Origin: an uncultured archaeon
GTDB taxonomy: Archaea > Asgardarchaeota > Lokiarchaeia > Sigyniarchaeales > SOKP01
Length of the DNA stretch: 19,874 bases
Assembly: GCA_964508365.1 (NCBI GenBank)
Contig: CAZDTP010000062.1
Location: 621-20,494 of the forward strand
Direction: 5' to 3'
Part shown: positions 1-12,101 of the stretch, piece by piece
How the letters are laid out: the number at the start of each line of letters is the position of its first letter
Position numbering within the stretch: the stretch's first letter is position 1
Position numbers and translations under genes: made by a program
The notes under the pieces: model-generated
What the model saw: only the letters and a program-made list of their open reading frames with translations
Database searches by the model: none
Told to the model about the DNA's origin: nothing

Positions 1-68
1 AAAAATCAAATTTATACTTATTCTTTTCTGTTGAGAGGAAGAAGTTTTTACGAAGTTATTTGAATTAA

Positions 69-1091
69 TTAATTCCAAACAATTTGCTCATATTTACATT
101 TATTACACTCAATAGATTCGCCTTTGAGGGGAAAATAGGTTAAAATATTCCCACAATATTTGCATTCCAGAGTATAAATTTGTTCTTCAGATTCTATTTG
201 ACCAAATATTATCATATCTTTTTCAAACTCGGTGATAAATTTTGTTAAGAGAGAAATGAGTAAGTGGGGATTGGACGAGGCTGCTAACCACTCTATTTTG
301 CGATCTAGTACTTGACAAATAATCAAAACATCGTTTCCTGAGACTAAATCAGTTCCGTAAAACCAACTAATTTTGTTGTCTTGATCTTTAACAATTAACT
401 GGAAGTTATTACTTTCAACAATTTTATTTATTTGCTCAAAAAAATTATTTTCATCAAAGAGATTGTCAATACCAATTCCGATGCTTTTAATTGCTTTTTT
501 TATCCAAGGCTTTTCAAGAAATTGTTTAATTTCTGATGAGGGTATTATTTTTCTTTCTATACTAAATGGATCAAACTGAATTAGGATGATATCAGTATCA
601 ATTGCCCTTACGAAATCAGCGTTGTTAATAAAAGTAACAAAGGATCTAATTGTACCTTTTTCTTCTAAGAAAAGGGGGCATAGATATAGGTTTATCTGTT
701 TCTTGGAATTTTTATCTAGGTTTTCAAATTCCATAACGACTTGTTGTTGTTCAAATTCTTTTTGATCGCTATTACTTTCATCTTCTTCAGATTCTAACGA
801 TTCTAGGATCAAAGTTGGTGGAGTGCTCCTACATAATTTAAAAAAGCTTGGAAATTTAATTCTAATTTTAACCTCTGTAATAGGATCGGCGCTCTGATTC
901 GTTATTAGTAAAGAATAAAGGTAATTTCCACCAAATGGGACTAATTTATAGACCATTTTTATTTTGTCTTCTTGATCCACATATTCCAACGGTTCAGGTT
1001 CAAATGGTTTTGACTCTTTTCCTGTAGTTTCATTAAATAGCATTAATTCATGGATATCTTCTTGACTTTTATCTTTATTTTTCCTTTCCAT
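69..1091 (-). CDS. Hypothetical protein; probable Ig-like beta-sandwich plus alpha/beta platform (adaptin/COP appendage-like) with C-terminal Zn ribbon
   Basis: 340 aa ORF. Alternating hydrophobic beta pattern at aa ~44-173 (YLYSLLITNQSADPITEVKIRIKFP), mixed alpha/beta at aa ~182-292, CKYC-x15-CNKC at aa 310-332. The fold call is inference. Confidence 0.6.
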   Translation of the reverse strand: MERKNKDKSQEDIHELMLFNETTGKESKPFEPEPLEYVDQEDKIKMVYKLVPFGGNYLYSLLITNQSADPITEVKIRIKFPSFFKLCRSTPPTLILESLESEEDESNSDQKEFEQQQVVMEFENLDKNSKKQINLYLCPLFLEEKGTIRSFVTFINNADFVRAIDTDIILIQFDPFSIERKIIPSSEIKQFLEKPWIKKAIKSIGIGIDNLFDENNFFEQINKIVESNNFQLIVKDQDNKISWFYGTDLVSGNDVLIICQVLDRKIEWLAASSNPHLLISLLTKFITEFEKDMIIFGQIESEEQIYTLECKYCGNILTYFPLKGESIECNKCKYEQIVWN

Positions 1092-1218
1092 GAATCATTC
1101 GCCGGTTTCTTAATAAAAAGATTATATTCGATTGTATAAAAAATATAAAACTATTTAGATTAATAATTTTATTTGACCTAGTTTTTTTTATAGACGATTC
1201 CTATTATATATAACCAGT

Positions 1219-1917
1219 ATGAATAAATTGAGCGAATTAGACCCATTATTTGCAAGTCCCACTATTAAACCAACATTCGATTATGTGCATATTATACTGT
1301 CATTATATCTTTTTGGTGAGAATACAGAAGGGATTGGTAGGTATCGACTTCAAAAAGAATTACAAATCGGAGCTGGAACTGTAAAATCATTATTTAATAA
1401 ATTGAAAAATGTTACCAATTTTATAATTGTTCCAAGCGAAGGAGAAACGAATGTTGGTGAATTACAGAGGAGAGGACATGTTTTAACTCAAAAAGGTTTT
1501 GAATTTTTAGCAAAAGTAAAAAGGAAGATTCCTTTATTGAAGAAAGCAGATTTGGAGTATTTACAAGATATTATAATTAAACAAGAAGATGTTAATTCGT
1601 ATTTCTGTTTAGTCAAAAAAGCCTCTACGAAGTTAAGTGATGGAATAGATCAAAGAGATGCTGCTATAAAAGTTAACGGCTCTGGTGCTACCTGTCTAGT
1701 TTATGATGGTGTTAACCTGTTTTTTCCCACAAAAACAGAATTTAAAGATGATAAAGATAATATCAAAATTAATCCTAAAACATTGAATTATTTTAAGTTG
1801 GAAATTGAAGATGCTAATGCTAAAATTGAAAAAGATGATGTAATTATAATAGGTTCGGGAGGTAACCATCAAAAGGCACGATTAGCTACTTTGAACGCTG
1901 CTTTAACTTTATTCTGA
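1219..1917 (+). CDS. Winged-HTH plus DUF4443 (PH0730-like, GAD-like C-terminal domain) putative transcriptional regulator
   Basis: N-terminal GIGRYRLQKELQIGAGTVKSLFNKLK HTH with wing (GHVLTQKG); C-terminal DGIDQRDAAIKVNGSGATCLVY and DVIIIGSG motifs typical of this archaeal family. Confidence 0.7.
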   Translation: MNKLSELDPLFASPTIKPTFDYVHIILSLYLFGENTEGIGRYRLQKELQIGAGTVKSLFNKLKNVTNFIIVPSEGETNVGELQRRGHVLTQKGFEFLAKVKRKIPLLKKADLEYLQDIIIKQEDVNSYFCLVKKASTKLSDGIDQRDAAIKVNGSGATCLVYDGVNLFFPTKTEFKDDKDNIKINPKTLNYFKLEIEDANAKIEKDDVIIIGSGGNHQKARLATLNAALTLF

Positions 1918-1925
1918 TTTTATAT

Positions 1926-2435
1926 ATGGAGTTAAATATGAGATTTGAGAAAGATATTGTTTTTAATATTAGTAACAATATAGTTGAAAAAATCAATAAC
2001 TGTATTAAATTAGCATCCCCTAACGAAGCTAGCGGTTTTATCCTAGGATATATTCAAGAAGTTAATAATAATAACCGTGATTTTAATTACAACTACTACA
2101 GTGTTTCTTTTCATTGTATGGAATCCAACAAAGGAAGCACTGTATCATTTTTATTAGATAATGATCAGAAAATTTTAGAGCTTTCAGAACATTTAATGAA
2201 AAATGAAAACCTGAAATTGATAGCAATTCTTCACTCTCATCCAACTGGAACAACTCCTAGTAGCACAGATAAACGTAACATGAAATATTACCATAATAGC
2301 GGTTTAAAGAAATTTACACACTTAATTTGGATCATTGTAGATTCCCGGAACAATGATATGAATGGGTTTATTTATTTGAGTAATAAGCTTACACAAATAA
2401 AACTTATTTTGAGTAATTATAGAAATTTATCATAA
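1926..2435 (+). CDS. JAB/MPN+ (JAMM) metalloprotease, desampylase/deubiquitinase-like
   Basis: Catalytic Glu in NEASGFILG and Zn motif HSHPTGTTPSSTD. Starts 8 nt after the upstream stop; alternative start at ATG 1938. Confidence 0.85.
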   Translation: MELNMRFEKDIVFNISNNIVEKINNCIKLASPNEASGFILGYIQEVNNNNRDFNYNYYSVSFHCMESNKGSTVSFLLDNDQKILELSEHLMKNENLKLIAILHSHPTGTTPSSTDKRNMKYYHNSGLKKFTHLIWIIVDSRNNDMNGFIYLSNKLTQIKLILSNYRNLS

Positions 2436-2555
2436 TAAACACCAATCTGTCAATTTCTACTTTAATATTGTTATAAACTTACTCACGTACTATTGATAAG
2501 TATTATTTAGAAAAAGCTAGATTTGAATTATTGTTCTTTGATAGTGTTTTACAGT

Positions 2556-3197
2556 TTATTGAACTTGTTTAAAACCAGTTTTATCAATCGTACATATTTG
2601 AAGGTTGAATCCGGATGCAGCATCTCTTTCTCGAGAACTTGATATTGCTGTTTCTATCAAGCTTATTCCTGCTGTTTTAGTTAATTTTGGTTTCCAATCG
2701 GCTTCTAACACTCCTAATGAAAATGGAGATCCTGAACCAAACGAAATGAATTTATCTTCTTCATATAGTGTCCCTAATAAATCAACACCATAAAGAATTC
2801 CGTTATTAGTTTTGTGTGAGAAACCTCCTACGATCATCATACACATGAAGTATGATCTTCCGCTAAATAAAATATTCCTTGTCATGCTTGCAATATACTG
2901 TGGATCTGGTACTTTATCTTCCTCTACTAGTTTTAATCTTGATAGAGCTTGTAGTTGATTAATAACATATTGGCAATCTGCAACTCCACCACTAATAGTG
3001 GCCGCTGTATAGTCATTTATTTTAAATAATTTTTGAGCTTCTTTGGTGGCTACAGTGTATCCCGCAGTAGCTTGAGATTCGGTACCGATTACAACACCAT
3101 CCTTTACAATGATCCCTACTGTGGTTGTACTCGATTTAATTATATTTTTTATAGAATCTTCATCTAAGTATGGATAATTAGATTTGTTCTCCATCAT
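2556..3197 (-). CDS. psmB: Proteasome subunit beta (Ntn hydrolase)
   Basis: 23-aa propeptide, then TTTVGI (Thr1), Glu17, Lys33 (QKLFKI), GGVADCQ, SFGSGS and RDAASG motifs. Confidence 0.95.
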   Translation of the reverse strand: MMENKSNYPYLDEDSIKNIIKSSTTTVGIIVKDGVVIGTESQATAGYTVATKEAQKLFKINDYTAATISGGVADCQYVINQLQALSRLKLVEEDKVPDPQYIASMTRNILFSGRSYFMCMMIVGGFSHKTNNGILYGVDLLGTLYEEDKFISFGSGSPFSLGVLEADWKPKLTKTAGISLIETAISSSRERDAASGFNLQICTIDKTGFKQVQ

Positions 3198-8442: not shown

Positions 8443-9090
8443 ATGTTACTATTACATAGACCAGAAGCCACTGAAATGGCTTTAGCGCTTCTTAGGAGTG
8501 GAGAGGTGTTTAATCTTTATGTCATCTTCATGCTTGTTGTAGTGCTCTATATATATTTCTCTGAGTTTCAAAAGAAGAATTTTAAAGCGATTGTAGCTGG
8601 ATTAACATTATACGGGATTCATTGGTTTGTAGAAATTATTAATTCTATAATTCAGTTTCTTTCTGGTCATGCGTTATGGACTGTCCCTAAAGGTACGGCG
8701 TATTTGATACTAGTAGGAGTAGGAATTGAATTAAGTTTAATGTTTGCAATAGTTGGCATTGTTCAGAGTAAATTACTACCTGATGATCCAAAAGAAAAAA
8801 TGTTTTCTATTGGAAGATTTGATATTCCTCAACCACTCGCAATAGGTATCGGTAATGCTTTTTTAGCTTCTGTTATTGAAATCTTTTTAATTTTCACTGA
8901 CTCATTTGTGTGGGTATGGGAGTGGTGGAACGCCATTACGGTATTCATATTCGTCTATATTCCATTCTTTGTCGTGTCCGCTTATTCGTATTACTGGGAA
9001 CCTAAAAGACAGCGAAATGTAATCCTTATAATGATCCTGATAGATGTTTCAATGATAGTCATTTTTGGATATATTTTGGGTTGGATTTAA
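8443..9090 (+). CDS. Multi-pass membrane protein of unknown function (~6-7 TM)
   Basis: 215 aa with repeated hydrophobic segments; polar and aromatic motifs HWFVEIIN, GIELSLMFA, WVWEWWN; 11-T tract at 9095-9105 downstream. Confidence 0.75.
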   Translation: MLLLHRPEATEMALALLRSGEVFNLYVIFMLVVVLYIYFSEFQKKNFKAIVAGLTLYGIHWFVEIINSIIQFLSGHALWTVPKGTAYLILVGVGIELSLMFAIVGIVQSKLLPDDPKEKMFSIGRFDIPQPLAIGIGNAFLASVIEIFLIFTDSFVWVWEWWNAITVFIFVYIPFFVVSAYSYYWEPKRQRNVILIMILIDVSMIVIFGYILGWI

Positions 9091-9094
9091 GCAA

Positions 9095-9105
9095 TTTTTT
9101 TTTTT
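9095..9105 (+). terminator. Oligo-T archaeal-type terminator
   Basis: 11 consecutive T starting 5 nt after the TAA of 8443..9090. Confidence 0.5.
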
Positions 9106-9249
9106 AATATTTTATCACTACTTACTAGAAAAATACTCTCTTTGTTCACTGTTTCACTAACTAATTGTATATCTAAATTGATTTTTTATAATGAATATTT
9201 TTAAATTTTAATATAACGAATTTATTCATGATTTTGGAGTTGATTTAAT

Positions 9250-10074
9250 ATGGATTTAAAATTTAATTCTGTAGTAAAATTAAATAACGGTGTAGAAATG
9301 CCTATTTTAGGACTCGGTACTTGGAAGCTTAGTGGCCCAAGTGCATCTAAAGCAGTGTTATGGGCGCTTGAATTAGGATATAGACTCATTGATACTGCCT
9401 CTTTTTATGGAAATGAAGAAAAAATAGGAGAAGCGCTCAAAATATCCACAATACCAAGAGAAGAGATTTTTATCACAACAAAAGTGTGGAATAGCGAACA
9501 AGGATACAAGAAAACTTTAAGTGCCATCGAACAAAGCCTTAATAAACTACACACCGATTATGTGGATCTTTACCTAATCCATTGGCCTGTAAGTAATTTG
9601 AGAAATGATACATGGAAAGCTTTAGAAAAACTTTACAAAGAAGGAAAGGCACGTTCTATAGGCGTAAGTAACTTTACGATGCGCCACTTAGAGGGACTTT
9701 TAGGAACAACCGACATAGTTCCCGCAGTAAATCAGTTTGAACTATCACCTTTTCTGTACCAGAAGGATTTAATCGATTATTGTCAAAACAAAAGTATAGT
9801 GGTCGAAGCTTATAGCTCTCTCATAAAAGGAAGAAAATTTAGTAATTCTGTACTACAAGAAATAGGTCAGAAATACAACAAAAGTCCTTCACAAGTATTA
9901 TTACGGTGGGGTTTGCAGCATAATATCATCCAAATACCCAAATCTGGGAAAAAAGAACACTTAGCGGAGAATGCTGATGTCTTCAATTTTACTTTGAGCG
10001 GAGAAGACATGAAACAATTGGATAATCTTAACGAAGATTTCAGACTGACTGATGATCCTCATTTGCTAAAGTAG
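9250..10074 (+). CDS. Aldo/keto reductase (DkgA/AKR5-like)
   Basis: GLGTW, catalytic tetrad D(TASF)Y, ITTKVW, LIHWP; SIGVSNF, NQFE and IPKS NADPH-binding motifs. Confidence 0.93.
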   Translation: MDLKFNSVVKLNNGVEMPILGLGTWKLSGPSASKAVLWALELGYRLIDTASFYGNEEKIGEALKISTIPREEIFITTKVWNSEQGYKKTLSAIEQSLNKLHTDYVDLYLIHWPVSNLRNDTWKALEKLYKEGKARSIGVSNFTMRHLEGLLGTTDIVPAVNQFELSPFLYQKDLIDYCQNKSIVVEAYSSLIKGRKFSNSVLQEIGQKYNKSPSQVLLRWGLQHNIIQIPKSGKKEHLAENADVFNFTLSGEDMKQLDNLNEDFRLTDDPHLLK

Positions 10075-10115
10075 ATCAGTAATTAAATTGCCAATTTCTT
10101 AGTGGAATTAGATTT

Positions 10116-10979
10116 TTAATGAGAACTTAGACTTTGAGCTAAAATAAGAGCTCCTCTGATTTCAGAGATATCTCCTACCCGGGAGGTATCAACAATTGCA
10201 CGATCAATATCCATATAAATCGCACCATATGCTTTACCTCCTCCTAAATGAACCAAAGTTCGGTATATCAAGTTTCCTGAAATCCCATTAGGAGCAATGA
10301 TTATATTAGTTTTTTCAGCGATCGCATTTTCAATTAAAATCTCTGAATGTTCAATCATTAGTGATGAATATTTATCTCTAAAATGGTCTACAACTTTTTG
10401 AGCTTCTTCAATACTATTATCTACCATCGGATTTCTTCCTATATCTCCAATTCTTCCACCACTTAATATACTTACTTTTGGTTCTAAATTCAATGTTTTT
10501 ATTTCCTTGATTGCTTTATTAACGAATAATATTTTGCTATCTAAGTCAATACATTCGTCTATACCCACGGGTCCGAAAAAAAACTGATACCCCGTATAAG
10601 TTTCTAACAGCGCTAGCCTATTAATTTCATGTATGTTTAGAATGGACAGAAGTCCTAGTAAGAATTTATTTGAGCTTAAATTTCCTCTCACAACGCTTGA
10701 AATTTCATTTCTTTTGAGGTAATTGAGAATTTCAGATGTGGGTTCATCTGATTCAACTAAAATAATATTTTTTTTATTTTTACTAAAGAGTTTATTATTA
10801 GCAATTTGATCTATTGATTTTCTACTCCCGAAGAAAAAAAAAGAATTACATTTTGGGTCTAAAATTGATATAGTGGCTTTTAATATTTTAAGATTATGAA
10901 CCTCTGAATCACCTAATCCAATACCTATTTTGCCTTCGATACCTTTGGCTTTTTGATAAATTTTTTCTAATATACTCAT
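10116..10979 (-). CDS. mtxX: MtxX/Mmp4 (methanogenesis marker 4)-like protein, phosphotransacetylase-like fold
   Basis: VVRGNLSS, FFFGPVGIDE, VSILSGGRIGDIGR, IIIAPNGISGNLIYRTL and IVDTSR motifs recognised from the MtxX family. Confidence 0.75.
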   Translation of the reverse strand: MSILEKIYQKAKGIEGKIGIGLGDSEVHNLKILKATISILDPKCNSFFFFGSRKSIDQIANNKLFSKNKKNIILVESDEPTSEILNYLKRNEISSVVRGNLSSNKFLLGLLSILNIHEINRLALLETYTGYQFFFGPVGIDECIDLDSKILFVNKAIKEIKTLNLEPKVSILSGGRIGDIGRNPMVDNSIEEAQKVVDHFRDKYSSLMIEHSEILIENAIAEKTNIIIAPNGISGNLIYRTLVHLGGGKAYGAIYMDIDRAIVDTSRVGDISEIRGALILAQSLSSH

Positions 10980-10997
10980 CGAATTTCTTGGATTTTG

Positions 10998-12101
10998 TTA
11001 AATAATATTGAATACTAAAAACGCAATTATAATCGTTAACGCATTGTAAACACCGTGGGTTATCATAACTGCAATTAAATTTTCTTTCCTCCAATAGTAA
11101 ATTAGCCCTAATAATAAGGAAATCGCAAAAAAGGGAAAAAAGTTTAAAAGTAAACTCACTATAAAAGATGTTAATGATTCGGGAAGGAGGAAAATTCCAA
11201 TAAGGTGAATAGACGAAAAAATTAGAGCTGTAATTAGAATACCCCCGATATTCCCAAGACTTCGTACTAAACCCTTTTGTAAAAATCCTCTGAAAAGCAC
11301 CTCCTCGGATGTTCCTATTATTAATATCATTATAAGGACTAACCAGATGATACTGAATATATCAGAAGATGTTATGAAAACATCTACTTCACCAGAAGTC
11401 CCAAGAATATCATATACTATTTCGTATCCAAAAATAATGGTTAATATAACCTCCATTAGAAAAGATACACTTAACACTAAAAATACTCCAAGAATCGCAA
11501 AAACTGTACCTATAAAAATTTCTTTCAATATTCCTTTGATATTAAAACCTTTAATGGTAAATCCTAAAAGGATCAATCGATTATTCAAGTTTGGCTTTTT
11601 TAGGTACTTGCCAATATATAACATTGGAACAATAAATAAAATCAATTCGATAAAGGAACTAAAAATAATTAAATAAGGATTGGTTAAGATATCATCTATA
11701 GCAGCTAAGCTAAATGAAAAAAATACAAATACGATAGCTACTAGAATTGTTACGAAGTTCATTAAGAGAAAAGCCACTGCGGTCATACCAATAGACGCGG
11801 AGCTACTCCATAACTTTTCTTCTTTTAGATTCAAGAGATCGTCCTGTGAGAGTTTCTTTCTTAAAGGCTTAGGAGGTCTGAAACTGTAAGGCTGGTAAGT
11901 ATTTGGAGCGGGTGTAACTAAGGGTATTGTGTCTTTACGAGGAGGCATCCTCATATGTGTGTTGATGTAGAATAAATCCACGCCACATTTGGTGCAAAAT
12001 TTAATATTCTTCACTTCCGGGATTTTAGTTCCACATATAGGACAAAACAACCATCTTAGCTTAATTTCGTTCGAATTGTCTATTTTATCATTCTCATTCA
12101 T
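10998..12101 (-). CDS. CPBP (CAAX/Abi) intramembrane glutamic protease with N-terminal Zn ribbon
   Basis: CPICG-x10-FCTKCG, Pro-rich linker, many TM segments, SEEVLFRG, FSSIH and HGVYN CPBP motifs. Confidence 0.88.
   Translation of the reverse strand: MNENDKIDNSNEIKLRWLFCPICGTKIPEVKNIKFCTKCGVDLFYINTHMRMPPRKDTIPLVTPAPNTYQPYSFRPPKPLRKKLSQDDLLNLKEEKLWSSSASIGMTAVAFLLMNFVTILVAIVFVFFSFSLAAIDDILTNPYLIIFSSFIELILFIVPMLYIGKYLKKPNLNNRLILLGFTIKGFNIKGILKEIFIGTVFAILGVFLVLSVSFLMEVILTIIFGYEIVYDILGTSGEVDVFITSSDIFSIIWLVLIMILIIGTSEEVLFRGFLQKGLVRSLGNIGGILITALIFSSIHLIGIFLLPESLTSFIVSLLLNFFPFFAISLLLGLIYYWRKENLIAVMITHGVYNALTIIIAFLVFNII

Follow-up and report, generated by a model that had tools for sequence, protein, structure and literature searches.

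Ear (appendage) domains serve as the interaction hubs of the eukaryotic clathrin and COPI coats, and the origin of these domains forms a part of the question of eukaryogenesis. The same question is raised by a gene (69..1091, minus strand) in the stretch of Lokiarchaeial DNA analysed here, referred to below as the window (19,874 nucleotides, AT-rich, ~30% GC). In an initial annotation made from the sequence alone, its product was read as a free-standing ear fused to a zinc ribbon. Is this protein (below, the ear protein) indeed related to the coat appendages, and in which cellular process could it take part? We consider it likely that the ear protein is a soluble, trunk-less counterpart of the AP/COPI appendages furnished with a zinc ribbon and operating as an interaction hub in the Asgard ubiquitin-like/ESCRT-type network.

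The gene starts with ATG, ends with a stop codon at 69–71, and encodes 340 aa; its open reading frame is free of internal stops according to both the ORF list and the translation. The product is predicted to be soluble, since no transmembrane segment reached the threshold in a Kyte–Doolittle hydrophobicity scan. That the ORF is a genuine gene conserved in Lokiarchaeia-type Asgard archaea, and not a product of chance, follows from the 180 homologues of similar length found at E ≤ 1e-3 and the 67 related cluster representatives retrieved when 1.84 billion such representatives were scanned with HMMER without filters. The best 120 of the 180 homologues display 48–94% identity to the ear protein, originate from Lokiarchaeota/Promethearchaeota MAGs, and are all named just “hypothetical protein”.

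As judged from species representatives of the phylum, about 34 of the 41 genomes of the window's family, its own genome counted, and all three genomes of the sister family possess a full-length orthologue (E < 1e-79); the genus g4 (four genomes) harbors only longer relatives of the protein. A search of the ESM Atlas with a homologue of the ear protein returned the family itself plus one Thorarchaeota cluster, and nothing else. The named loci all belong to Promethearchaeota, evident mislabels excepted. One such record (L033, DATKTW010000045.1) is titled “Candidatus Nanopelagicaceae bacterium” and carries a 94%-identical orthologue together with the full Lokiarchaeial synteny, so the label of this MAG is evidently wrong.

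The AlphaFold2 model of the ear protein, obtained from an alignment of 54 sequences, is characterized by a pLDDT of 87 and a pTM of 0.81. The N-terminal tail (aa 1–33; 993..1091, minus strand) is disordered in the model (pLDDT 33–39) and variable in sequence, save for one short hydrophobic motif (aa 14–21; 1029..1052, minus strand) whose L16 and F19 are invariant in 31 orthologues (alignment A1). Judging from this conservation, the segment may represent a candidate linear motif for binding of a partner or for self-binding. The tail is followed by an Ig-like beta-sandwich (aa 34–180; 552..992, minus strand), which corresponds to the beta-rich block recognized initially: DSSP assigns strands across aa 35–180 of the model. 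The acidic loop pointed out in the same block is also there, at about aa 97–117 (741..803, minus strand); it is a low-complexity segment (block pLDDT 54) and a lineage-specific insertion of the close relatives, being length-variable or absent in the distant orthologues (A1).

The sandwich passes into a platform of the TBP-like, helix-grip type (aa 181–297; 201..551, minus strand), composed of a linker helix, a strand, a helix, four strands, and a long helix. By DSSP on the model, these elements are H185–193, E198–206, H214–227, four strands within 231–272, and H275–295; the alpha/beta block recognized initially is thus present, and it opens with a helix. The “F...W helix” noticed at the same place turned out to be half conserved: F191 is kept (96% in A1) and W196 is not. 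The conserved residues of the platform include W243, Q260, and E267. The chain ends with a C4 zinc ribbon (aa 298–340; 72..200, minus strand) made of three short strands (pLDDT ≥94), with two CxxC knuckles borne by beta hairpins in the predicted model. The CxxC-x15-CxxC signature seen in the translation is C310-x2-C313-x15-C329-x2-C332, and all four cysteines are invariant across the 54 aligned family members, at identities down to 17%. In profile searches, the ribbon weakly matches the LysW, eS27, and RPB9-type ribbons. When aa 176–340 were modelled alone, the pLDDT increased to 96.7 and the pTM amounted to 0.89; the latter value suggests that the ribbon is rigidly packed on the platform, at least as far as the prediction goes. 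Overall, 340 aa accommodate a 33-aa tail, the sandwich, the platform, and the ribbon, in agreement with the idea of a stand-alone ear with a zinc ribbon and no trunk.

The relationship to the coat appendages is indicated mainly by the structure. A Foldseek search of the PDB with the whole model yielded, as the top matches, the appendages of COPI beta and gamma, AP2 beta2 and alpha, and BBS7 (E from 1.7e-9 to 1e-5). The best of these was the beta-COP appendage (9QPQ_H, E 1.7e-9), with gamma-COP (1PZD), AP2 beta2 (1E42), AP2 alpha (1W80 and others), and BBS7 among the other leading ones. The alignments to 9QPQ_H, 1PZD, 1E42, and 1W80 are about 270–283 columns long and hence cover both subdomains. 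VIA aligned 192–221 residues spanning residues 31–294 of the model, and in a filter-free VIA search both subdomains were aligned only by the beta2, alpha, and BBS9 appendages. In the predicted model, the sandwich comes first and the platform second in one and the same chain, which is the order characteristic of appendages.

The platform was also compared separately, using the model of aa 176–340 against 48,161 representative chains with VIA and without the Foldseek prefilter. The four highest ranks were occupied by adaptin and COPI platforms: AP2 beta2 (3H1Z_A, 824–937; Z 12.6, rmsd 2.6 Å over 107 residues), the AP4 beta appendage (2MJ7; Z 12.2, 2.6 Å over 114), AP2 alpha (1W80_A, 825–938; Z 12.0, 2.7 Å over 106), and gamma-COP (1R4X_A; Z 10.1, 2.5 Å over 101). 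Thus, the by-eye comparison of the second block with the beta2-adaptin platform was borne out. The Roco COR (Z 9.7), KA1 (9.1), and Bet v1-like (about 8) domains, which came next, were considered as alternative fold assignments and rejected: they match the platform alone, at Z ≤ 9.7, below the adaptin and COPI platforms. The initial annotation would have had to be abandoned if the prediction had shown no sandwich-plus-platform arrangement or if its best matches had been generic Ig folds only. The arrangement is predicted and the best whole-length matches are to AP2, COPI, and the BBSome, so the ear-like reading of the fold is supported at the level of the model.

The sequence-level evidence for an adaptin appendage is weak but consistent. 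The Alpha_adaptinC2 model (PF02883) aligns to aa 42–124 of the ear protein with E 0.089 and 13.5 bits vs. the gathering score of 27.6, and no adaptin model reached its Pfam gathering score on this protein. Still, no other Pfam family is hit as often in the alignment of 54 relatives: Alpha_adaptinC2 matches 22 of them, always weakly, the best E being 0.001. In the whole 4.07-Mb genome, it was found at E ≤ 1 only in the ear gene (on two redundant contigs) and in a paralogue of 790 aa; this genome-wide result is taken as a hint only, since sub-threshold matches to the same model turned up in 4 of 14 control bacterial genomes as well. The model of the platform, B2-adapt-app_C (PF09066), when run over the whole genome, matched nothing at E ≤ 1. 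Whether the query was the ear protein itself or the profile of the family, searches of PDB sequences returned zinc-ribbon proteins and noise but no appendage.

These observations leave some room for a convergent look-alike, i.e., a generic Ig-like domain combined with a generic helix-grip/TBP-like domain which share neither ancestry nor mode of action with the coat appendages; such a protein could be, e.g., a binder of small ligands or nucleic acids with the zinc ribbon as the functional part. The TBP-like/helix-grip platform is a widespread fold, and the sandwich proved to be structurally generic in the filter-free search. Convergence would also accommodate the sub-threshold character of the adaptin matches and their occurrence in bacterial controls, as well as the outcome of the platform-only Foldseek search, where nothing matched at E ≤ 1e-3 and the weak list was headed by Bet v1/MLP-like ligand binders, with Bet v1-like, KA1, and BamC entries mixed with appendages. 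It would likewise fit the mutual orientation of the subdomains: two-domain superpositions of the predicted model on solved ears gave an rmsd of 12.7–15 Å and a TM-score of 0.25–0.39, vs. about 2.6 Å for each subdomain superposed alone, so the predicted interdomain orientation differs from that in the solved structures. However, a chance resemblance does not readily explain why four adaptin and COPI platforms head the filter-free search with a gap to the rest, why the domain order and the linker helix agree with those of the appendages, and why the appendages alone are aligned across both subdomains. The homology to an appendage fused with Vps28-C (see below) additionally places the family in a trafficking-type context. 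Taken together, convergence appears unlikely, and the kinship with AP/COPI appendages is the preferred interpretation.

The paralogue mentioned above resides in the same genome, on another contig (L030:4044–6416, minus strand; contig C1 of G000). The family profile matches it with E 2.9e-21 over profile positions 11–330; pairwise BLAST of the two proteins is only marginal (E 0.015), so it is from the profile match that paralogy is deduced. According to Pfam, the matched region is preceded by winged-helix (wH) repeats of the PCI/E3_UFM1_ligase (UFL1)/DDRGK type and followed by VPS28-C, and the N-terminus of the protein bears a ribbon of the CxxC-x9-CxxC pattern. Like the ear protein, the paralogue is predicted to be soluble and possesses the homologous sandwich and platform. 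The two differ in what surrounds this pair of domains: an N-terminal zinc ribbon and long wH repeats vs. the 33-aa tail in front, and Vps28-C vs. the zinc ribbon after the platform. No Pfam match to Vps28-C or the steadiness box was found in the ear protein.

The appendage–zinc-ribbon unit is also reused as a C-terminal cassette of longer relatives, detected with profile E-values from 1e-33 to 1e-40. The protein of 853 aa encoded at L089 (G198:C220:40–2601, plus strand) has a Ras/Roc GTPase before the cassette (Pfam Ras E 4.2e-29), so this fusion directly joins two modules of the trafficking type. TPR repeats precede the cassette in P0183 (537 aa), and a weak TPR match (E 5e-4) is found at the same place in L091 (574 aa). 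Four more relatives are receptor-like, with the cassette positioned after the last predicted transmembrane segment and ectodomains, where present, of SBBP beta-propeller/TSP3 repeats or an ABC_transp_aux/GIFT-like domain. Thus, L088 (G040:C44; 1077 aa) displays a beta-propeller/TSP3 ectodomain, a hydrophobic segment, and the cassette; in L087 (G039:C90; 1258 aa), the second hydrophobic segment (aa 559–577) is followed by UFL1/DDRGK wH repeats and then by the cassette; L090 and L092 (653 and 414 aa) have only one or two N-terminal hydrophobic segments before it. In these membrane-anchored relatives, the cassette is the predicted cytoplasmic end. In the shorter relatives, the cassette is preceded by a weak PCI-like wH domain. 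Against this background, the ear protein of the window is the minimal, stand-alone form of the family, i.e., the cassette plus a disordered tail, and a general role of the cassette as an output or hub module is supported by its position after small GTPases and receptor-like membrane regions in other members. In a Thorarchaeota-like family, we also observed two adjacent genes for proteins of 618 and 758 aa (L031:6810–8666 and 8761–11037; G046:C7), both starting with a zinc ribbon and giving partial profile matches, either to the platform and zinc ribbon or to the sandwich; pairs of this type occur in G081 and G140 as well.

How does the family relate to the systems described so far? In the predicted model, the ear protein follows the same sandwich-then-platform order as AP2 beta2 and alpha, COPI beta and gamma, and BBS2, BBS7, and BBS9; AP4 beta, in contrast, has a platform only. 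The large subunits of AP and COPI carry their ears on a HEAT/ARM trunk with a hinge, whereas the ear protein is devoid of both and, unlike the AP/COPI ears, is extended by the C4 ribbon after the last helix of the platform. Its subdomains are also predicted to be oriented differently from those of the AP/COPI ears (rmsd 13–15 Å for the model), and its identity to the AP, COPI, and BBSome appendages is 8–16%, below the Pfam thresholds. Since the sequence scores remain sub-threshold and there is no trunk to which the ear could be attached, we call the protein an appendage-like module and refrain from classifying it as a coat subunit.

Appendage domains of adaptins have been reported in Asgard archaea as “not fused to each other” (Eme et al., PMC10307638), and fusions of Asgard Vps28/Vps23 with the C-terminal domains of adaptins and COPI and with UFL1 were described by Liu et al. 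2021 (10.1101/2020.10.19.343400). Makarova et al. 2024 (10.1101/2024.02.06.579148) documented Vps28-C together with an adaptin appendage region in Asgard proteins, as well as archaeal proteins combining an appendage with a zinc ribbon, and put forward an early archaeal origin of the appendage. The 790-aa paralogue displays the wH–appendage–Vps28-C architecture described in the latter two studies. The same authors described Meth_adaptin of methanogen-type archaea, in which the appendage (IG + TBP) is combined with a zinc ribbon or, via a TM linker, with a GOLD domain (10.1101/2024.02.06.579148). By description, Meth_adaptin and the ear family are alike in uniting an archaeal appendage with a zinc ribbon and in having membrane-anchored variants with a cytoplasmic appendage. 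They differ in that Meth_adaptin has an extra N-terminal domain and is encoded beside Vps4/ESCRT-III, whereas the ear gene is located outside ESCRT loci. Given that ear-like domains of Asgard archaea and archaeal appendage–zinc-ribbon fusions have already been published, the advance made here is incremental; a description of this particular stand-alone Lokiarchaeial family was not found in the main texts of the articles.

The neighbors of the ear gene are conserved. Upstream, an AT-rich intergenic stretch of 127 bp (1092..1218) with TATA-like boxes, which are likely to belong to promoters, separates it from the divergently oriented gene of a DUF4443/PH0730-like wHTH protein (1219–1917, plus strand; Pfam E 5.2e-18), followed after 8 bp by a JAB/JAMM gene (1926–2435, plus strand; Pfam E 4.7e-11). 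The gene psmB, coding for the proteasome beta subunit, converges on this pair, and the genes of S8e, HypA, and SRP19 lie beyond; the DUF4443–JAB–psmB block (window 1219–3197) is conserved across the family. The survey of homologues and their surroundings, proposed along with the initial annotation, comprised 49 full-length loci from named genomes; in 46 of these, the sequence available upstream of the ear gene extended over about 670 bp or more. The DUF4443 gene is upstream of the ear gene and divergent from it in 45 of the 46 (directly adjacent in 42), and the synteny persists even where the ear protein is as little as 41% identical. In three loci, the two genes are set apart by an insertion of roughly 1.2 kb, and in a locus of the sister family (L029) they are about 6.6 kb apart. 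In almost every locus with a sufficient length of downstream DNA, the ear gene is followed by an archaeal histone gene of the same orientation, at a distance of ~0.4–1.8 kb (about 3.9 kb in one locus); an example is the gene of a 69-aa histone-fold protein at L026:6573–6782, minus strand. A conserved antisense “ORF” of 70–76 aa starting with MSSRVTFF was dismissed as a shadow of this histone gene, and the conserved stretch downstream of the ear gene gave nothing when scanned for Rfam families and tRNAs.

This neighborhood invites an explanation in which the ear protein is an accessory of the ubiquitin-like/proteasome system and not of membrane trafficking: as a receptor or scaffold, it could cooperate with the JAMM isopeptidase, the proteasome beta subunit, and the DUF4443 wHTH protein, the last of which might regulate the ear gene via the 127-bp intergenic region shared by the two genes. 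The persistence of the histone/ear/DUF4443–JAB/psmB block in 45 of the 46 loci, down to 41% identity, speaks in favor of this scenario, as do the UFL1/DDRGK-type wH repeats of the UFM1 pathway in the paralogue and the ability of zinc ribbons and NZF fingers to bind ubiquitin-like proteins (cited in Makarova et al., 10.1101/2024.02.06.579148). Yet the genes of the ribosomal protein S8e, HypA, and SRP19 show an equal degree of synteny, the ear and DUF4443–JAB genes are divergent and not co-transcribed, and their proximity is broken by the 6.6-kb separation in L029 and the insertion in three loci. Moreover, all the genomes possessing this gene order come from the order of the window, so the conserved neighborhood may reflect inheritance of the gene order rather than functional coupling. 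On balance, this explanation seems improbable. It should be mentioned that no ESCRT gene adjoins the ear gene either, its neighbors being those of the histone, DUF4443, JAB, and psmB.

Returning to the appendage-like hub as the preferred reading, the following mode of action can be proposed. By analogy with the eukaryotic ears, the ear protein would most likely serve as a hub of protein–protein interactions, its platform and/or sandwich binding short linear motifs of partner proteins. The zinc ribbon, if docked on the platform as modelled, would provide a second contact surface, either additional or composite. We infer that the most plausible place of action would be the Asgard ubiquitin-like/ESCRT-type network of sorting or degradation; this is indicated by the Vps28-C and UFL1-type domains of the paralogue and, to a lesser degree, by the JAMM/proteasome neighborhood. 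It is tempting to speculate that the ear protein and the paralogue could interact with each other through the ribbon of the former and the Vps28-C of the latter, since both occupy the same position after the platform, and the zinc finger of yeast Vps36 binds Vps28-C (summarised in Makarova et al., 10.1101/2024.02.06.579148). A bolder version holds that the ear protein is a near-universal core component of Lokiarchaeales physically connecting clients that bear motifs or ubiquitin-like modifications with ESCRT or the proteasome, perhaps through a ribbon–Vps28-C contact, and that it retains the pre-eukaryotic, trunk-less state of the appendage which was later recruited into coat adaptors; we regard this version as unlikely. 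The ear gene, being compact, highly conserved, and coding for a soluble protein, should express easily and offers an entry point to the question of what archaeal ears bind.

The beginning of the window bears traces of a partial tandem duplication, which involved the 3' third of the ear gene and the DNA downstream of it (C62:1–395 vs. window 1–395). The extra copy lies before the start of the window, on the far side of a gap of 100 N at C62:521–620, and has a DNA identity of 86%; with its stop codons and the replacement of three of the four zinc-ligand cysteines, it represents a decaying fragment. In another genome of the same genus (L024:7630–7887), the repeat unit is 1.1 kb long, includes the histone gene, and displays 90% identity. 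Around this tandem repeat, a second contig of the MAG, C101:634–3224, is 100% identical to C62:621–3211 (G000; L001 and L002). Judging from this identity, the MAG probably has a single ear gene, which appears twice through assembly redundancy.
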